A stretch of 20,000 nucleotides of DNA from an uncultured virus (IMG/VR IMGVR_UViG_3300021963_000096) (Duplodnaviria > Heunggongvirae > Uroviricota > Caudoviricetes). Every line of letters starts with the position of its first letter. The stretch's first letter is position 1. Of this stretch, positions 700 to 16,350 are shown piece after piece. The notes beneath the pieces were generated by a model. That model was not told the DNA's origin. It saw only the letters and a program-made list of their open reading frames with translations, and did no database searches. The translations under genes were made by a program, and so were the position numbers. The stretch is taken from IMG/VR virus record IMGVR_UViG_3300021963_000096. One strand, 5' to 3'.

Positions 700-1134
700 G
701 TGCTGTGGACATATCAAAATCAACCCGTAGAAGAAATACCCGAAGGCTACATAGGCTTTGTTTATCTCATCACCAATCTACAGACCGGACAGAAGTACAT
801 AGGCAAAAAACTAGCTCAATTCAAACGTACTAAACCACCACTCAAAGGCAAAAAACTTAAAAGAAGATCAACAGTAGAAAGCGATTGGCGCGAATACTGG
901 GGTTCATCTGATAGGTTAAACGCAGACGTCCAAGCATTAGGTCCGGAAAACTTCACTAGAGAAATACTTTATCTTTGTAAATCCAAGGCAGAAATGTCAT
1001 ATCTAGAGGCTAGAGAGCAGTTTGAACGCAGGGTTTTAGAAACAGATGACTATTATAATGGCATTATAAACGTCAGAGTTGGCGGTTCAAACATACTTAG
1101 ACAGCGTCTAGAAGAACATAAAAAGGCAAAATAA
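700..1134 (+). CDS. Stand-alone GIY-YIG family endonuclease (Seg-like catalytic domain only)
   Basis: GFVYLITN...KYIGKK (GIY-YIG motif), YWGSS, a Glu in the metal-ligand position in YLEAREQF, and YYNG. There is a basic insertion KRTKPPLKGKKLKRR and no C-terminal DNA-binding domain. GTG start. Confidence 0.85.
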   Translation: MLWTYQNQPVEEIPEGYIGFVYLITNLQTGQKYIGKKLAQFKRTKPPLKGKKLKRRSTVESDWREYWGSSDRLNADVQALGPENFTREILYLCKSKAEMSYLEAREQFERRVLETDDYYNGIINVRVGGSNILRQRLEEHKKAK

Positions 1135-1500
1135 TCGCCAAAAAAACCCGCACCGGTGACTGTTATGGTGCCCGAAATCCGTGGTGATGTCGCACGGTAA
1201 GGACCCTAATTGGCGAAGGGTAAACATAGTACTATCCTTAACAGGACGTGGATCGGATATGCCTACAACCGGTTTACTATGTGAAAAACGCATTTTTAAA
1301 GGCTAAATGAGGGTTAATAGCCCACGACTATACTGTACGATAGCAGGTATTTTATAGTCCGCCGTCATAATAAGACTGAGCTCGAGGTACCGGATGACCG
1401 CCTCTGTAATGCTCTACTGCTGTGTGACATGTTCGACTCGGATAATGTTCATCTTTTAGCCCGCAAGGGCTAAGTGTGACTGAACGATCTGGATAATATT
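1135..1500 (+). ncRNA. Candidate large structured non-coding RNA (family not recognised)
   Basis: No credible ORF. Nested stems: 1150-54/1167-71, 1179-83/1193-97, 1203-07/1217-21, 1224-31/1275-82, 1326-32/1353-59, 1384-87/1401-04, and 1456-62/1467-73 capped by a GCAA tetraloop. Loop pseudoknot 1135-41/1210-16. G-U pairs and the GNRA loop favour the + strand as RNA. Confidence 0.6.
1422..1500 (+). repeat. Imperfect direct repeat GTGTGAC-N4/5-CGA-N3-GGATAAT-(G/A)TT, two copies
   Basis: Copy 1 at 1422-1449 is GTGTGACatgttCGActcGGATAATgTT. Copy 2 at 1474-1500 is GTGTGACtgaaCGAtctGGATAATaTT. Confidence 0.75.
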
Positions 1501-2718: not shown

Positions 2719-2945
2719 AAAAACGGCAACCCAGAAGTTTTAGTTATGTCCATATTATCCTTGACTATTTCAAGGACAAGTTCTCTTTCGTCGTGGCTTA
2801 GATTCATCGCTTCAGCAAACGACAAACCACCACGCATATACCAAACTGATCGCATAGCTTCTAACTTGATCTGTTTTGCCTGATCATCTAAGGCCTTCGA
2901 CTCGGCTAATACTTCAGGAATACTTAACGTCGAAAGCCTTTGCCG
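2715..2945 (-). CDS. Small ORF overlapping the gp26-like gene in the -1 frame; probable C-terminal extension made by frameshifting (baseplate/tail chaperone, gp51/gpT-like role)
   Basis: Protein-like sequence (WYMRGGLSFAEAMNLSHDERE...GLPFF). The track's ATG at 2984 lies inside the upstream gene without an SD. The frame can be entered by a -1 slip at 2951-2945. Confidence 0.7.
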   Translation of the reverse strand, partial: RQRLSTLSIPEVLAESKALDDQAKQIKLEAMRSVWYMRGGLSFAEAMNLSHDERELVLEIVKDNMDITKTSGLPFF

Positions 2946-2951
2946 AAAAAA
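2890..2951 (-). promoter_or_regulatory. Putative programmed -1 ribosomal frameshift signal
   Basis: In-phase heptamer T_TTT_TTC (2951-2945), followed after 4 nt by the 12-bp stem AAGGCTTTCGAC (2940-2929) / GTCGAAGGCCTT (2901-2890). Confidence 0.7.
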
Positions 2952-3817
2952 TCCGACTGATCCATAGTAAGTTCTACTTCCCATTCATTGGCACAGTTTT
3001 GACATTTGCTGTGAAAGGTGCTAAGATTACCTGTTTCTCTGGTCTTGCTGACAGCATTATTAATCTGTTCAAAGATATTCTTATCAGTTTTTTGTAAAAA
3101 TTCTTTTATGAACTCTGGATTGTCAGTCATGCCTGCTGAACTTTCAATACGAGTGATACATCTAACTGCGGTGTCGATGGTTAAATCGGTAAGTTTAATA
3201 AAACTTTCTTGAAACATCTTAAGTTTTTCTTGCTCGCTGATAGACTCATCGTTGATAATAGTGAATATCCTCTGATGCTCAAAAGCCTTTAATGCTGCTT
3301 TGGTAATTTCTTCATAGGTCATAGGTCTTAGATGAACGACCATTTGATCTCCAATCTCAACTTTGGTATCAAATGTAATACTGTTTAATTTGTCTAAGAC
3401 TGTGCGTAGATCAACGACAGCATCATTAGCATGACTGCACTTAGGGCATCTAGCCACAACTTCCATATCTTCCCCGTAGGTTGCGATACGAATAGCAGAT
3501 AAAATAGCATCAACATCTAGGCTAGGTACTTGCCAAGGATCGACGATATTAGGAATGCAGCTTGAGATTACTTCTTTCGTAGCTACTCCGTTCATCAAAG
3601 CATCGGGAGTCTTAAACAGTAGCTCGTCTCTAGCCGTCATAGCATAAACAGGATATTCATTGTTAGGAGTTCTTTTTAAGGCTCCTTCTGGATAAAAATT
3701 ACCTTTTGACGGTAGAGACACATAGATTTTTGGCTGTCTAAAAAAACTAGACAACGGGTTTAAGTTTTGTTGAGGAGCAGACTGTGCTGCGACCTTACTT
3801 GGATCAAAATCTGACAT
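2924..3817 (-). CDS. gp26: Baseplate hub assembly chaperone (T4 gp26/gp51 family)
   Basis: Motifs PKIYVSLPS, MTARDE, DAILSAIRIATYGE, two CxxC pairs (CPKC, CQNC) and terminal DFF. SD-like AGGTGG and a perfect late promoter lie upstream. Confidence 0.75.
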   Translation of the reverse strand: MSDFDPSKVAAQSAPQQNLNPLSSFFRQPKIYVSLPSKGNFYPEGALKRTPNNEYPVYAMTARDELLFKTPDALMNGVATKEVISSCIPNIVDPWQVPSLDVDAILSAIRIATYGEDMEVVARCPKCSHANDAVVDLRTVLDKLNSITFDTKVEIGDQMVVHLRPMTYEEITKAALKAFEHQRIFTIINDESISEQEKLKMFQESFIKLTDLTIDTAVRCITRIESSAGMTDNPEFIKEFLQKTDKNIFEQINNAVSKTRETGNLSTFHSKCQNCANEWEVELTMDQSDFFGKGFRR

Positions 3818-3896: not shown

Positions 3897-6500
3897 ATGG
3901 CAAAAACTTCAGTAGAAATCCTAGGCGGAAAATTAGATGGCACTGTAATTAATAACATGGCCAGCGAAGCCACGATGCGTGATCTGCTGGTTGCTGTTAA
4001 AAAAATGTCTGGGAGTACTACTGGTAGCTCATCATCTTCTGGACCAGCAAAAAGTAAATCAAATTTAAAAAAGAATTTAGGAACTATGTCTAGTTTAGCC
4101 GACGGGCTAGGCGAACAAATAGGCAACGTGATTGGAGCAGTTGGCGGCATGGGTGCTATGCTTGCTGTAGGTAACACACGGATGAGTTCCTATACTAAAG
4201 CTCTAAACGATCAAGTAATATCTAAAATTCCTTTAGTAGGCGGCCTACTTGGTGGCCTCGGAGGTGTGATCAACAGCACCATAGAAGTCTTTGAAGAATG
4301 GAATGAAAGTCTTAAGAAAGGCACAGATTCTGGTGCTACATTCGGTAATAGCATATTAAGAGCATCAAAAGCAGCCACATCAGCAGCCATGGGCCTAGAT
4401 GATTATATGGCGATGGTTAACAAGCATTCAACAACAATGCTAAATCTAGGAGGAACTGTTACTGAAGGAGCAGAAAGATTTAGTAGAGTAGCTAAACAGA
4501 TGAATAGGCAAGGCGGAACAGCGACCAAAACACTGAGACAAATGGGCTATTCAGCCGAAATGGTCAATGAAGCATTTTTACAATATGTTGAAATGACCGG
4601 AATGGGGCTACAGCAGAGCGGAATCACAGATAGACAACTAGCAGAATCATTTGATACCTTTCAACTTAATTTAATTAGGATGGGCTATCTCACAGGACAG
4701 GGTGTAAAAAAACTCGAAGAACAGATGGCAGTAGCCAGTCAAGATATTGTATTCAGGATGCAGCTAGCAAAACTAAAAGATCCAAAACAACGAGATAAAG
4801 TCATGGCATCGCTGGTACAGTTTACTTCAATGTACGGCGAAGCTGGAGCAGAATTATTCAAAGCGATATTTTTAGGAATGCCACCGGGCGGCGAAGATGC
4901 TAGGAATCTAATGGTGATGATTCCTGAATTGCCAGGGCTTATGAAAAAATCTTTAGATTCAGCTGTGAAGGGTAAAGCTTCTGTAGATGCTTATATTCAA
5001 GATAATGAAGACGTTTTAATTGACGCTATGGTAGCATCAGCTAGAAGAGGCGAAGGTATTGAAGGAATGTTAGCTGCTGCCGGTTCAGGATACGCTGATG
5101 CTGAAAAACTTAGAAAATCTCTGATACCAATACTCACACAGTTGAACAAGTACGGAGACATTGCTAATATTGATAGACTAAAATTAAAAGAGCTGTTCGC
5201 CAGTGCTAGAAGAGAAGCCAAAGATAGAGACGAACTTACTCAATTTTTAAATAACATGTCGATGGCCTTTGAAGAATTAAAATTTGGGTTGATGGACTTT
5301 TTTATTCCGATGCTGGAGGATCTAGGAATTTACCTTGAAGAAAAAGACCTACCCGGCAAAGTTAAAGAATTCGGATTGTTTTTAAAAAATTCAGTTGAAA
5401 AATATCTACCAGACGTTATAACATTCTTTAAATGGCTAGGAGATGAAAATGGTAGATCTTATATCCTAAATGAAATGGGTTATTTTTTCAAACGGATGGC
5501 TGTAGAATTCGAATATTATGCCAAAGAAGCCTTTGGATTTGGTACAGCTGAAGAATACCAAGCATTAAAAAACGAAGAACTAGGTAAAATTAAAAAAGAT
5601 TATGAGGATCAAAAAACCAAGCTAGCACCAAAATTGCCTGAGCGATATGTGCCACCACATAAAAGAGAAGGAGCAGCTAGAGAAGAACCGGCTGCTCCAG
5701 GAGCACGTCGTGAACAACGTCCTCCCTCGTCAGGCACGATGTCCACGACTGGTCAAGGTCCCTTAGGTATACGTGATCAAACACAATATGCGGCAGATTT
5801 AGAGAGAGGCGGTTCTTTACAAAATATTCAAGGTACAATTATCCATCATACCGGTGGTCGAGCTATGTCTGGAATGTACGCTACTTTAAGAAACAAAGGA
5901 TTTTCTTATAATTACGCTATAGATCGAGAAGGAAATATACATCAGATATTGCCAGACGGCACAGTAGCTTACCATGCTGGTAAAACTCCTAAGATGCCGC
6001 ATCTTAGCAATCAAAACACATTAGGTATATCTTTATTAGCCAACGACGATGCTGATATACTGCCTGTACAATTAGAAAAATTAGTAGAGTTACAGAAATT
6101 TCTAGCAGAAAAATACGGCTTCACAGCCACATCGGCATTTGGCCACGGTGAAACATCAGCTAAACAACCTACAGAAGGCGTCACAGGTGCTGGCCACATT
6201 AGACAAACTTTAAGTAAAGCAGGGGTTAGATCTCATAAATCTGGAACACTGGGACAATACGGTTCTCTGTTTAAAGACTTCGGAGCTGGAACAAATGTAA
6301 TATTAGATGACGTTGAAACTGTGATGACTCCTTCCCAGATGAATTCTATGATTGTTGGTTCTGGAAATATCGCTACAACTGAAATGTTACAGTCTTTAGA
6401 TAGGAACTTTCAGAGATTAGTAACTATTATGTCAGAAAGAACTAACATATCTAAATCACAATTATCTTACATAGAACAAAATCAAACTAGGATAGCTTAA
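3897..6500 (+). CDS. Tape-measure-like / baseplate hub protein with a C-proximal N-acetylmuramoyl-L-alanine amidase (Amidase_2-like) domain
   Basis: Long helical Ala/Gly/Met-rich protein next to the chaperone gene. Amidase motifs IIHHTGG, YNYAIDREGNIHQ, AYHAG, NQNTLGISL and FGHGE lie at about 5825-6190. Confidence 0.7.
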   Translation: MAKTSVEILGGKLDGTVINNMASEATMRDLLVAVKKMSGSTTGSSSSSGPAKSKSNLKKNLGTMSSLADGLGEQIGNVIGAVGGMGAMLAVGNTRMSSYTKALNDQVISKIPLVGGLLGGLGGVINSTIEVFEEWNESLKKGTDSGATFGNSILRASKAATSAAMGLDDYMAMVNKHSTTMLNLGGTVTEGAERFSRVAKQMNRQGGTATKTLRQMGYSAEMVNEAFLQYVEMTGMGLQQSGITDRQLAESFDTFQLNLIRMGYLTGQGVKKLEEQMAVASQDIVFRMQLAKLKDPKQRDKVMASLVQFTSMYGEAGAELFKAIFLGMPPGGEDARNLMVMIPELPGLMKKSLDSAVKGKASVDAYIQDNEDVLIDAMVASARRGEGIEGMLAAAGSGYADAEKLRKSLIPILTQLNKYGDIANIDRLKLKELFASARREAKDRDELTQFLNNMSMAFEELKFGLMDFFIPMLEDLGIYLEEKDLPGKVKEFGLFLKNSVEKYLPDVITFFKWLGDENGRSYILNEMGYFFKRMAVEFEYYAKEAFGFGTAEEYQALKNEELGKIKKDYEDQKTKLAPKLPERYVPPHKREGAAREEPAAPGARREQRPPSSGTMSTTGQGPLGIRDQTQYAADLERGGSLQNIQGTIIHHTGGRAMSGMYATLRNKGFSYNYAIDREGNIHQILPDGTVAYHAGKTPKMPHLSNQNTLGISLLANDDADILPVQLEKLVELQKFLAEKYGFTATSAFGHGETSAKQPTEGVTGAGHIRQTLSKAGVRSHKSGTLGQYGSLFKDFGAGTNVILDDVETVMTPSQMNSMIVGSGNIATTEMLQSLDRNFQRLVTIMSERTNISKSQLSYIEQNQTRIA

Positions 6501-15864: not shown

Positions 15865-15919
15865 TCTAGAGCTTACTCTTCTGAGTAACTTATGCTGTAA
15901 CCCACAGCGTAGACCTAGA
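15865..15919 (+). promoter_or_regulatory. Structured 5' leader (three-way junction) of ORF 15943
   Basis: P1 TCTAG/CTAGA (15865-69/15915-19), P2 TTACTC/GAGTAA (15873-78/15883-88), P3 TATGCTGT/ACAGCGTA (15891-98/15904-11). Confidence 0.6.
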
Positions 15920-15942
15920 ACGTCAACATAAGGAGAAAACAA

Positions 15943-16350
15943 ATGGGACGTCCATTAAGAAAAGATGTATTAGGTACTGATGTTATCGGTACTCCAGCAA
16001 CTACCAGCACAGGTATTCGTGTAGAAGCATACGCAGGCGGCACTGCTTATACTGATGCTACCTACAATGCTTCAACAAATTATGCTTATATCTATAAGCA
16101 ACGTGGAGCAAAAACATTCACGCTAAAGAATCAAGCCGGGGATAATCTTGGTCCTTGCGTACTTCAGTCTGCTATTCCAGACAGCAACGGCGAAATGAGA
16201 TTAAATGGTTATGTAGGCGGCAACGCTTCTGCTCCAACTCCAATCGCAAAAATCACAAAACGTGTAGCTACAGATTTCAGCGGTAACCGTTATACTTGGA
16301 TCCTAGTCAACGATTCAACCAGCGATTATATTCAATTGACCGCTATCTAA
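15943..16350 (+). CDS. Putative virion structural protein (possibly head decoration)
   Basis: 135-aa ORF with beta-type composition, strong TAAGGAG SD, a late promoter, and a position just downstream of gp23. Confidence 0.7.
   Translation: MGRPLRKDVLGTDVIGTPATTSTGIRVEAYAGGTAYTDATYNASTNYAYIYKQRGAKTFTLKNQAGDNLGPCVLQSAIPDSNGEMRLNGYVGGNASAPTPIAKITKRVATDFSGNRYTWILVNDSTSDYIQLTAI

Follow-up and report, generated by a model that had tools for sequence, protein, structure and literature searches.

A long-form Polynucleobacter-1 RNA adjoins a GIY-YIG nuclease gene in T4-like phages and may be an autonomous structured RNA module

The DNA considered here is a 20,000-nucleotide (nt) stretch of an uncultured virus (IMG/VR record IMGVR_UViG_3300021963_000096), referred to in full as the window; its Pfam gene content identifies it as a fragment of a T4-like myovirus. 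Near one end of the window, a small GIY-YIG nuclease gene is followed directly by a long non-coding interval. We found that this interval carries a member of a catalogued but little-studied RNA family, Polynucleobacter-1, in a form that is longer and more elaborately pseudoknotted than the family's model. The RNA adjoins a GIY-YIG gene in most of the related phage loci, and it also occurs where no such gene is found. Our preferred reading, held tentatively and with slightly less than even confidence, is that the RNA is an autonomous structured module that the nuclease transcript carries at its end, with the nuclease gene as a neighbor resembling SegB of phage T4.

The identity of the RNA came from a cmscan comparison: positions 1145–1284 of the + strand are Rfam RF01718, Polynucleobacter-1 RNA, with a score of 63.5 bits (gathering score, 37; E = 1.2e-11), and the match spans the whole model (positions 1–141 of 141). 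A first-pass annotation, prepared from the sequence without database searches, had not recognized the RNA family. The family is already catalogued, and its 2010 alignment holds the 3′ domain and its pseudoknot as well. Polynucleobacter-1 was described in 2010 by Weinberg et al., in whose Table 1 it appears as a likely RNA ("cis-reg: y, switch: ?") of Burkholderiales from fresh water or estuary (PMC2864571). A full-text literature search for the name returned the discovery paper alone. Whereas the Rfam model is limited to the 5′ domain, 11 of the 16 rows of the 2010 Stockholm alignment extend ~150 nt beyond it, and these long rows contain an AAAGGC box, a hairpin with an AUAGC-type loop and the block CGAGGUACCGG...ACCGCCUCUGUAAUGC (PMC2864571). 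The window matches this long-form 3′ block at 1378–1423. Further, the SS_cons_1 pseudoknot of the 2010 alignment is exactly the ATAGCAG/CTGCTGT pairing of the window (PK3, below), and the helices of the 3′ domain are present in SS_cons. Positions 1145–1425 are the known motif in its long form. Its freshwater or estuary habitat and its presence in Polynucleobacter genomes are further points in common. Three features of the window's RNA lack annotation in the family: two additional pseudoknots (PK1 and PK2), an AGGC lead-in, and a tail made of two boxes and a hairpin (R1-H1-R2). Moreover, the "short" bacterial members in fact carry a diverged 3′ part and the tail. The available text of Weinberg et al. 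mentions neither the phage/nuclease context nor the bacterial-island context described below (PMC2864571).

The components of the RNA, and the gene that it follows, are as follows.

700–1134, + strand: GIY-YIG nuclease gene, 144 amino acids (aa), GTG start, TAA stop at 1132–1134 (Pfam PF19835, phrog_447)
1124–1134, + strand: motif AGGC-N4-5-T(A/T)A, conserved at the nucleotide level just before the RNA (65 distinct loci aligned on the stop codon)
1135–1141 with 1210–1216, + strand: pseudoknot PK1, the 5′ strand with the loop of hairpin P3 (register-free test)
1145–1284, + strand: 5′ domain, the RF01718 region (cmscan)
1150–1154/1167–1171, 1179–1183/1193–1197 and 1203–1207/1217–1221, + strand: stems P1, P2 and P3
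1224–1231/1275–1282, 1235–1238/1243–1246 and 1251–1256/1269–1274, + strand: stems P4, P4a and P4b
1261–1264 with 1300–1303, + strand: pseudoknot PK2, GCCT in the loop of P4b with AGGC
1300–1425, + strand: 3′ domain (2010 seed alignment and covariation)
1311–1315/1319–1323, 1326–1332/1353–1359 (inner stem 1335–1338/1347–1350) and 1364–1366/1374–1376, + strand: stems P5, P6 and P7
1378–1381/1411–1414, then 1384–1387/1401–1404 and 1391–1393/1398–1400, + strand: stem P8 and the two parts of stem P9
1340–1346 with 1417–1423, + strand: pseudoknot PK3

Much of this structure had been anticipated. Every string that the first-pass annotation quoted for the three pseudoknots lies where it was said to lie (TCGCCAA, 1135–1141; TTGGCGA, 1210–1216; GCCT, 1261–1264; AGGC, 1300–1303; ATAGCAG, 1340–1346; CTGCTGT, 1417–1423), and the listed stems are likewise present. 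The interval 1135–1614 (480 nt) is, as had been claimed, the largest gap between long open reading frames (ORFs) in the window; the second, at 2719–2923, is ~205 nt. The + strand fold of the interval surpasses those of all 100 dinucleotide shuffles (z = −4.39), compared with z = −2.27 for the − strand.

Relatives were gathered by means of a 3′ core pattern, GGTACCGGNNNACCGCCNNNGYAATG, which occurs in at least 120 IMG/VR contigs of up to 345 kb, and 105 distinct homologous elements were aligned with MAFFT. RNAalifold derived 43 pairs from this alignment, 30 of which show compensatory changes. We also wrote the full structure proposed in the first-pass annotation, together with the three pseudoknots, onto the alignment and counted pairs: 73.7% of the cells pair, compared with 64.4% after shuffling (0 of 500 shuffles reached the observed value) and 33–45% when partners were slid. 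The covariation that had been suggested as a check on this fold is evident, with 60 of the 81 pairs having changed on both sides, and 32 columns are invariant. The shuffle test and the covariation together bear out the notion of a structured, heavily pseudoknotted + strand RNA. Individual helices differ in their counts. P1 (96.9% paired, 5/5 compensatory pairs), P6 (92.8%, 11/11) and PK3 (95%, 7/7) are well populated with compensatory pairs, and P8 and P9 are 99.8–100% paired. The counts for P2–P5 and PK1 in the MAFFT columns are low (23–61%; 54–61% for P2, P3 and P5) because alignment rows slip by one or two columns. In the register chosen by RNAalifold, the closing stem P4 shows compensatory changes in five of six pairs, and P4b is supported in the same register.

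Owing to these slips, PK1 was assessed independently of the alignment register. When the 5′ tail was matched to the P3 loop, the best duplex scored 5.09 on average within sequences, against 3.86 for permuted partners (0 of 500 permutations). There were 39 distinct best-duplex variants, mostly matched, such as GCGGT/GCCGC, TCAGT/GCTGA, TCACCAA/TTGGTGA and TTCGG/CCGAA. PK2 is 79% paired, with all four pairs changed on both sides, and sequences with an AGGT-type partner have an ACCT loop in seven of eight cases, vs. 6% of the loops of the AGGC type; in a permutation test, its self and permuted pairings were not significantly separated. Hence PK1 is strongly, and PK2 moderately, supported by covariation, and both are additions to the 2010 annotation.

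The conserved RNA does not end with PK3, but continues to ~1517 in the form of two tandem units, each consisting of GTGAC, a spacer, a box and a hairpin. These units and the conserved features beyond them are listed here.

1436–1446, + strand: box R1, ACTCGGATAAT, followed by hairpin H1 at 1456–1473 with a GCAA loop
1487–1497, + strand: box R2, ATCTGGATAAT, followed by hairpin H2 at 1503–1517 with a UUC loop
1533–1557, + strand: H4, with the conserved loop GAGCGnnAGCGAA (consensus of 59 loci, Polynucleobacter copies)
1558–1576, + strand: hairpin H5 (consensus of 59 loci, Polynucleobacter copies)
1579–1596, + strand: interval containing the string TAAATAAT; the next gene starts at 1615

H1 covaries as judged by eye (e.g., TTGCCC/GGGCAA and TTCTCCC/GGGAGAA). 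Predicted folds of the R1–R2 interval contain 135 G-U pairs on the + strand and 24 on the − strand, and this excess suggests that the R1–R2 part probably belongs to the RNA; if so, the length of ~365 nt that was originally estimated for the element fits. The stretch with H2, H4 and H5 may be part of the same RNA or may hold transcription signals. In one phage copy (L120), ~65 nt comprising the 3′ strand of PK3, R1 and H1 are missing, such that the 3′ domain is joined straight to the R2 unit: a natural deletion between the two repeat units.

An unexpected relationship connects the two boxes. The purine at 1440, after ACTC, is identical to that at 1491, after ATCT, in all 106 distinct sequences (55 G/G, 51 A/A), and in 97 of 97 cases in a wider set; the two purines are 51 nt apart. 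Two further box positions are identical in 99–100% of sequences, but these follow the RNA subtype. Bacterial copies of the RNA show the relationship over four variable nucleotides: in 10 of 12 loci, the tetramer that follows ACTC also follows ATCT, and six different tetramers occur. No other column from −262 to ~+500 exceeds a normalized mutual information of 0.26 with the coupled purine. When residues of the GIY-YIG protein were compared with the variable box position, the maximum normalized mutual information was 0.17, below the 95th percentile of the null distribution (0.22). The first-pass annotation had also proposed a search for a hypervariable, guide-like segment; we found no variable stretch of 12 nt or more, the variable regions being covarying stems, and the free positions in the R boxes amount to 1–3 nt.

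We considered several accounts of this coupling. Antiparallel pairing of R1 with R2 predicts an A/G combination as the best one, and this combination was never seen. A bypass of the T4 gene 60 type would be suggested by the fit of R1 to rGA plus a TAA/TGA stop, but the frame is interrupted by an in-frame TGA at 1425–1427, and the would-be "landing" codon is itself followed by a stop. A junction box used throughout the genome was discarded as well, with two loose matches in the 20 kb. The coupling of 1440 with 1491 is thus one of identity, not of complementarity, and base pairing does not explain it. It may instead reflect identical crossover cores of recombination sites, repeats on which a template re-aligns, or a common partner in trans. 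A coupling of identity between purines 51 nt apart points to an unusual mechanism.

How tightly is the RNA linked to the nuclease gene? We located the window's proteins by tblastn in loci oriented according to the RNA. Of the RNA-seeded viral loci, 72 had 760 nt or more of upstream sequence, and in 67 of these a GIY-YIG homolog (51–96% identity) ends at the 5′ edge of the RNA, 244–327 nt before the core motif. The converse sample comprised the best 80 of at least 596 GIY-YIG relatives (81–98% identity), 71 of which had at least 330 nt downstream; nhmmer found both RNA domains in 66, deleted forms in 2 and neither domain in 3. The nuclease–RNA system that the first-pass annotation had envisaged is sustained in part: the adjacency is real in phages, but an obligate tie is not, as the RNA occurs without GIY-YIG and GIY-YIG without the RNA.

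The boundary between gene and RNA is intimate. As had been noted for the window, pairing starts right after the stop codon, and in some relatives the RNA overlaps the ORF's end: across the 65 distinct loci, the stop is provided by the TAG of T-AGGC, by a TAA immediately ahead of PK1, or by one beyond the PK1 strand, and it falls from 10 nt before to 6 nt after the start of that strand. The AGGC lead-in is also kept in locus L133, where the upstream ORF is a PD-(D/E)XK endonuclease (PF24608) that ends at the RNA. L133 is one of the five exceptions among the 72 loci, in three of which GIY-YIG is absent beside the RNA and in two of which it is displaced. In the other two loci of the former kind (L129 and L194), a PD-(D/E)XK nuclease and an RNase H are followed by ~390 nt without an ORF and then by the RNA; in the displaced cases (L138 and L189), an extra ORF stands between the GIY-YIG gene and the RNA. 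A promoter-like box precedes the RNA in two phage loci, one being L129, with TATAAT directly before the PK1 strand. Upstream of that box, ~420–340 nt before the core motif, L129 also has at least five tandem copies of GTTACCCTAAAGCA.

The wider surroundings are less constant. A gp46-like gene lies 0.7–2.9 kb upstream, and the gene downstream of the RNA varies. In 14 of the 58 phage loci with enough flanking sequence, the next recognizable gene is a convergent baseplate-hub gene whose 3′ end lies 387–474 nt beyond the core motif; the intervening sequence has no credible ORF on the + strand. Pairwise distances of GIY-YIG, gp46, the RNA's 5′ domain and its 3′ domain are barely correlated (Spearman coefficients of 0.06–0.25), from which we infer that recombination is rampant.

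For the most part, the GIY-YIG family lacks the RNA. RF01718 was not found in phages Melnitz, phiM12 or P-SSM4. In P-SSM4 and phiM12, the next gene comes directly after the GIY-YIG relative. The Melnitz phages, which have the closest cultured homolog (65%), possess a gap of 148 nt after it, and neither RF01718 (E ≤ 1) nor the nhmmer profiles match there. A blastn search with 1135–1614 found no match in cultured phages. Among 35 GIY-YIG loci in genome contigs, mostly mis-binned phage pieces in metagenome-assembled genomes (MAGs), the RNA is present in seven and a diverged variant in two; none of these loci below ~57% identity carries it. RF01718 was also not found after 20 more distant GIY-YIG homologs in MAG contigs. 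The diverged variant occupies a gap of ~400 nt after a 60%-identical GIY-YIG gene in two contigs of one MAG (L328 and L332; 183 and 148 kb); it features two AAGGCAA boxes, a GGTACCGGTCAACCGCC core and a ACTCGGATGATG box, and it is missed by Rfam and was found by a 23-nt profile match. Two close GIY-YIG relatives without the RNA (L249 and L307; 96% and 92%) have instead an ORF of 86–92 aa (MTKL.WDR...), after which comes another GC-rich, foldable stretch. In the Prochlorococcus phage P-SSM4 (L242, 1–117), a manA RNA (RF01745, 96 bits) lies ~2 kb upstream of the RNA-less GIY-YIG homolog.

The nuclease itself is a minimal enzyme. Its 144 residues match PF19835, SegE_GIY-YIG (E = 7.5e-37; residues 3–123 on positions 1–123 of the 123-position profile), and phrog_447 (E = 3.5e-40); no PDB sequence matched at E ≤ 1. 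Given this coverage, the earlier view that the protein has a catalytic domain only is upheld: the C-terminal DNA-binding domain of the Seg/I-TevI type is absent, the remaining tail being short and variable. The motifs GFVY and KYIGKK are kept in eight of eight aligned GIY-YIG proteins, and R87, E88, E98, E103 and N120 are invariant; some of these residues may correspond to the catalytic Arg, Glu and Asn of I-TevI. The first-pass annotation had drawn attention to a Lys/Arg-rich insertion, a conceivable RNA-binding feature. The same insertion is present in all 13 RNA-less or RNA-variant relatives examined, with a Lys+Arg fraction of 0.17–0.20; judging from these sequences, it is a family-wide trait and not one specific to RNA-linked proteins. 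PADLOC returned nothing for the protein except weak homing-endonuclease models. This small GIY-YIG family is common in phages, with 595 phage records, 339 of them from Synechococcus phages.

The RNA also resides in bacterial chromosomes. RF01718 scores above its cut-off in 16 of 141 Polynucleobacter genomes, the Rfam seed position among them (strain QLW-P1DMWA-1, 2130772–2130906), and no GIY-YIG match was found within 1.5 kb of the RNA in any of 15 bacterial loci, chromosomal or MAG (L360–L374). The context is nevertheless consistent. In all 12 loci with 5-kb flanks, a divergent DUF6641 gene is followed by the RNA, sometimes one ORF, and a gene for a tyrosine recombinase of the 188-aa class, which has the same orientation as the RNA (12/12) and lies 0.3–1.2 kb from it; in most, the island continues with a 260-aa protein, an AAA ATPase and a 424-aa protein. 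Neither the window nor the phage loci contain a homolog of any of seven island proteins; what the phage and bacterial loci compared have in common is the RNA module alone. Defence-system models did not match DUF6641, the island proteins or the PD-(D/E)XK protein. The bacterial copies have a diverged 3′ part with a AAACCGCC core, the same R1-H1-R2 tail as those in phages, and H4; their PK1 is compensatory as well (CTACTG/CAGTAG, CTACCG/CGGTAG, CTACTT/AAGTAG). Around one RNA-bearing Polynucleobacter island, a 37-nt repeat occurs at ~5 places (L375, 6182–18066; L376, 16123–16159).

Evidence for transcription was drawn from Logan contigs assembled from RNA libraries, which do not show RNA ends and may include DNA carry-over. 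Libraries from two studies contain a contig that begins within the ORF, at 904, reads through the junction and breaks off at 1426 or ~1447; an exact contig spans 1139–1381, and another 1254–1515. These contigs fit co-transcription with the ORF and an RNA that reaches at least H2. A sigma-70 scan of 600–1700 returned no + strand promoter, and there was no + strand intrinsic terminator after the RNA.

In the reading that we favor, 1135 to ~1517 encodes a long-form Polynucleobacter-1 member in which a 5′ domain and a 3′ domain are locked by three pseudoknots and followed by the two-box/hairpin tail. Its source would be either the nuclease transcript, of which it would form the 3′ end, or a start overlapping the last part of the ORF; thereafter the RNA would act independently and in trans, for instance as a catalytic or architectural RNA or through the binding of a host or phage factor. 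We regard it as not tied to the nuclease because it stands alone in Polynucleobacter, with no GIY-YIG within 1.5 kb, and in two phage loci. The GIY-YIG gene would be a neighbor, not an obligate partner: a free-standing nuclease gene next to a conserved stable-RNA gene, as in T4. There, SegB is a free-standing GIY-YIG homing endonuclease encoded in the tRNA gene cluster, and its recognition site includes a conserved RNA-gene motif (PMC2330249). Such a site provides a selfish reason for adjacency, and by analogy the same may hold here. The resemblance lies in a GIY-YIG gene placed among stable-RNA genes of a T4-type phage; unlike SegB, the present protein has no DNA-binding extension, its family is widespread, and its gene is present in 67 of 72 loci, not patchily.

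Several observations weigh against this reading. With the GIY-YIG ORF extending just up to the RNA in 67 of 72 loci, and its stop codon inside sequence conserved at the RNA level, the arrangement is closer than mere synteny would call for, while the distances from gp46 to GIY-YIG and from the RNA to the baseplate gene vary by kilobases. Where GIY-YIG is missing from the phage loci, another nuclease, PD-(D/E)XK, is present (L133, L129 and L194), and a DNA recombinase gene follows the RNA in 12 of 12 bacterial loci; recurrent neighbors that cut or join DNA fit a functional partnership. Finally, the phage samples were seeded by an exact 3′ motif or drawn from the best 80 of at least 596 close GIY-YIG relatives, so that their members are related and not independent.

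These points lead directly to the alternative of a partnership, in which the RNA would serve an adjacent nuclease or recombinase as scaffold, specificity element or inhibitor, R1/R2 being its variable specificity part. Besides the linkage from both directions (67/72 and 66/71) and the replacement of one nuclease by another, the identity of R1 and R2 at variable positions, in 106 of 106 phage sequences and 10 of 12 bacterial loci with six tetramers, speaks for it. We nonetheless consider it unlikely. One RNA would have to serve three unrelated enzyme folds with a variable part of merely 1–4 nt, no GIY-YIG residue covaries with the box (0.17 vs. 0.22), the RNA is absent from 3 of 71 close relatives and from P-SSM4 and phiM12, and neither the Lys/Arg insertion, which is unspecific, nor the weak homing-endonuclease models from PADLOC point to the RNA. 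Its most ambitious version, a single specificity or scaffold RNA of ~400–480 nt for GIY-YIG, PD-(D/E)XK and tyrosine recombinase enzymes, with R1/R2 as programmable boxes that read two copies of a short DNA sequence, seems decidedly improbable. A cis-acting role as a 3′ element that sets the stability or translation of the nuclease message would make sense of the stop codon's position: because PK1 starts at or overlaps the stop (10 nt before to 6 nt after), a terminating ribosome and the complete fold would be mutually exclusive. Contigs that bridge the ORF and the RNA, and the 14 of 58 loci in which no further + strand feature separates the RNA from a convergent gene, agree with this idea. 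Yet ~360 nt and three pseudoknots exceed what 3′-end protection needs, and the RNA stands alone in bacteria, L129 and L194; we doubt this explanation.

Turning to the downstream side, the RNA could be a 5′ leader or riboswitch-like cis-regulator, the class tentatively assigned in Table 1 of the 2010 paper (PMC2864571). The bacterial recombinase gene, which is co-oriented with the RNA at all 12 loci examined, and the window's + strand gene at 1615 are placed suitably. In phages, such a role is unlikely because 14 of 58 loci have a convergent gene next and a homolog of the 367-aa gene at 1615 follows in only 6 loci; in bacteria, 0.3–1.2 kb and sometimes an ORF intervene between the RNA and the recombinase. 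Overall, we judge a leader to be quite improbable. A ribozyme, for instance one that cuts itself at the 5′ edge just after the ORF, would accord with a large, conserved, multiply pseudoknotted core having 32 invariant columns and, weakly, with the exact RNA-library contig whose first position, 1139, is 4 nt inside the predicted 5′ edge. As contig ends are not RNA ends, and no Rfam ribozyme matched at E ≤ 1, we hold this to be very unlikely. Most doubtful in our estimation, to the point of being barely probable, is that the tail acts as DNA, with R1 and R2 as paired site-specific recombination sites, which need identical crossover cores, or as replication signals. Direct-repeat identity in place of complementarity and the nearby tyrosine recombinase in bacteria are compatible with it; on the other hand, the sites would be 51–72 bp apart with no inverted arms around the core, phage loci have no recombinase, and the G-U asymmetry favors folding of a + strand RNA.

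Known nuclease- or recombinase-associated RNAs offer partial parallels. The reRNA of TnpB and the omega RNA (HEARO) of IscB are large structured RNAs that adjoin or overlap the end of a small nuclease gene. The present RNA is placed in the same manner, next to and overlapping the nuclease gene's end, but we see no RuvC or HNH domain, transposon end or guide of 12 nt or more, and this RNA sits beside three unrelated enzyme folds. Neither is there the obligate co-occurrence of nuclease and RNA that marks those systems: the RNA lacks GIY-YIG in bacteria and at three phage loci, and GIY-YIG lacks the RNA in 3 of 71 close relatives and in distant ones. In the IS110 bridge RNA/seekRNA, as reported, an RNA next to a recombinase gene contains two short programmable elements (PMC11208158). 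Two identical variable boxes and, in bacteria, a nearby recombinase gene recall that arrangement; the differences are that the tyrosine recombinase is not of the IS110 type, the boxes have 1–4 variable nucleotides, and no element ends were identified. Our literature search found no RNA-guided tyrosine recombinase. As GOLLD, ROOL and OLE are described (PMC12286853), those RNAs share with ours a length of hundreds of nucleotides, an ornate conserved fold, carriage by phages and a function that is unknown, but they belong to a different sequence family. The Ssn enzymes are GIY-YIG site-specific single-stranded DNA nucleases that recognize a repeat sequence, NTS (Chenal et al. 2025, PMC11893778). 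By that description, they resemble the present protein in being minimal GIY-YIG enzymes; the element here is a single large RNA and not a dispersed repeat.

An orphan RNA since 2010, Polynucleobacter-1 thus acquires a testable genomic context. T4-like lake phages commonly carry it (at least 120 IMG/VR contigs), it is bigger and more knotted than catalogued, and its neighbors are DNA nucleases in the phages and, in bacterial islands, a recombinase; the phage and island loci compared have no proteins in common. Should the RNA work with the adjoining enzymes, it would represent a new kind of RNA-assisted DNA enzyme; otherwise, it is another large, ornate RNA for structural study.

The remaining genes around the module are these.

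2–472: end of an SMC_N/gp46-like ORF (Pfam)
1615–2718, + strand: 367-aa gene without a family, outside the conserved module (homolog in only 6 loci of the set)
2924–3817, − strand: T4 baseplate-hub (assembly) gene (PF12322, phrog_150)

Further along the window, Pfam identifies the portal gp20, prohead protease gp21 and major capsid gp23 genes; no tRNA or tmRNA was found in the window. The 367-aa protein has no Pfam, PHROG or PADLOC family, and its conservation is limited to the first ~85 residues in a few relatives. In L133 and L292, the slot after the RNA holds different proteins with a similar MK(I/A)..(I/V)..E start. The N-terminus of the 367-aa protein bears a possible likeness to the capsid-targeting leaders of T4. 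Beside the baseplate-hub gene, an 867-aa protein (3897–6500, +) contains an Amidase_2 (N-acetylmuramoyl-L-alanine amidase) domain at residues 642–752. The window also holds a second Rfam RNA, RF02980 freshwater-2, at 15873–15945 (+; 62 bits vs. a cut-off of 49.9), which extends into the ATG of the ORF at 15943–16350.

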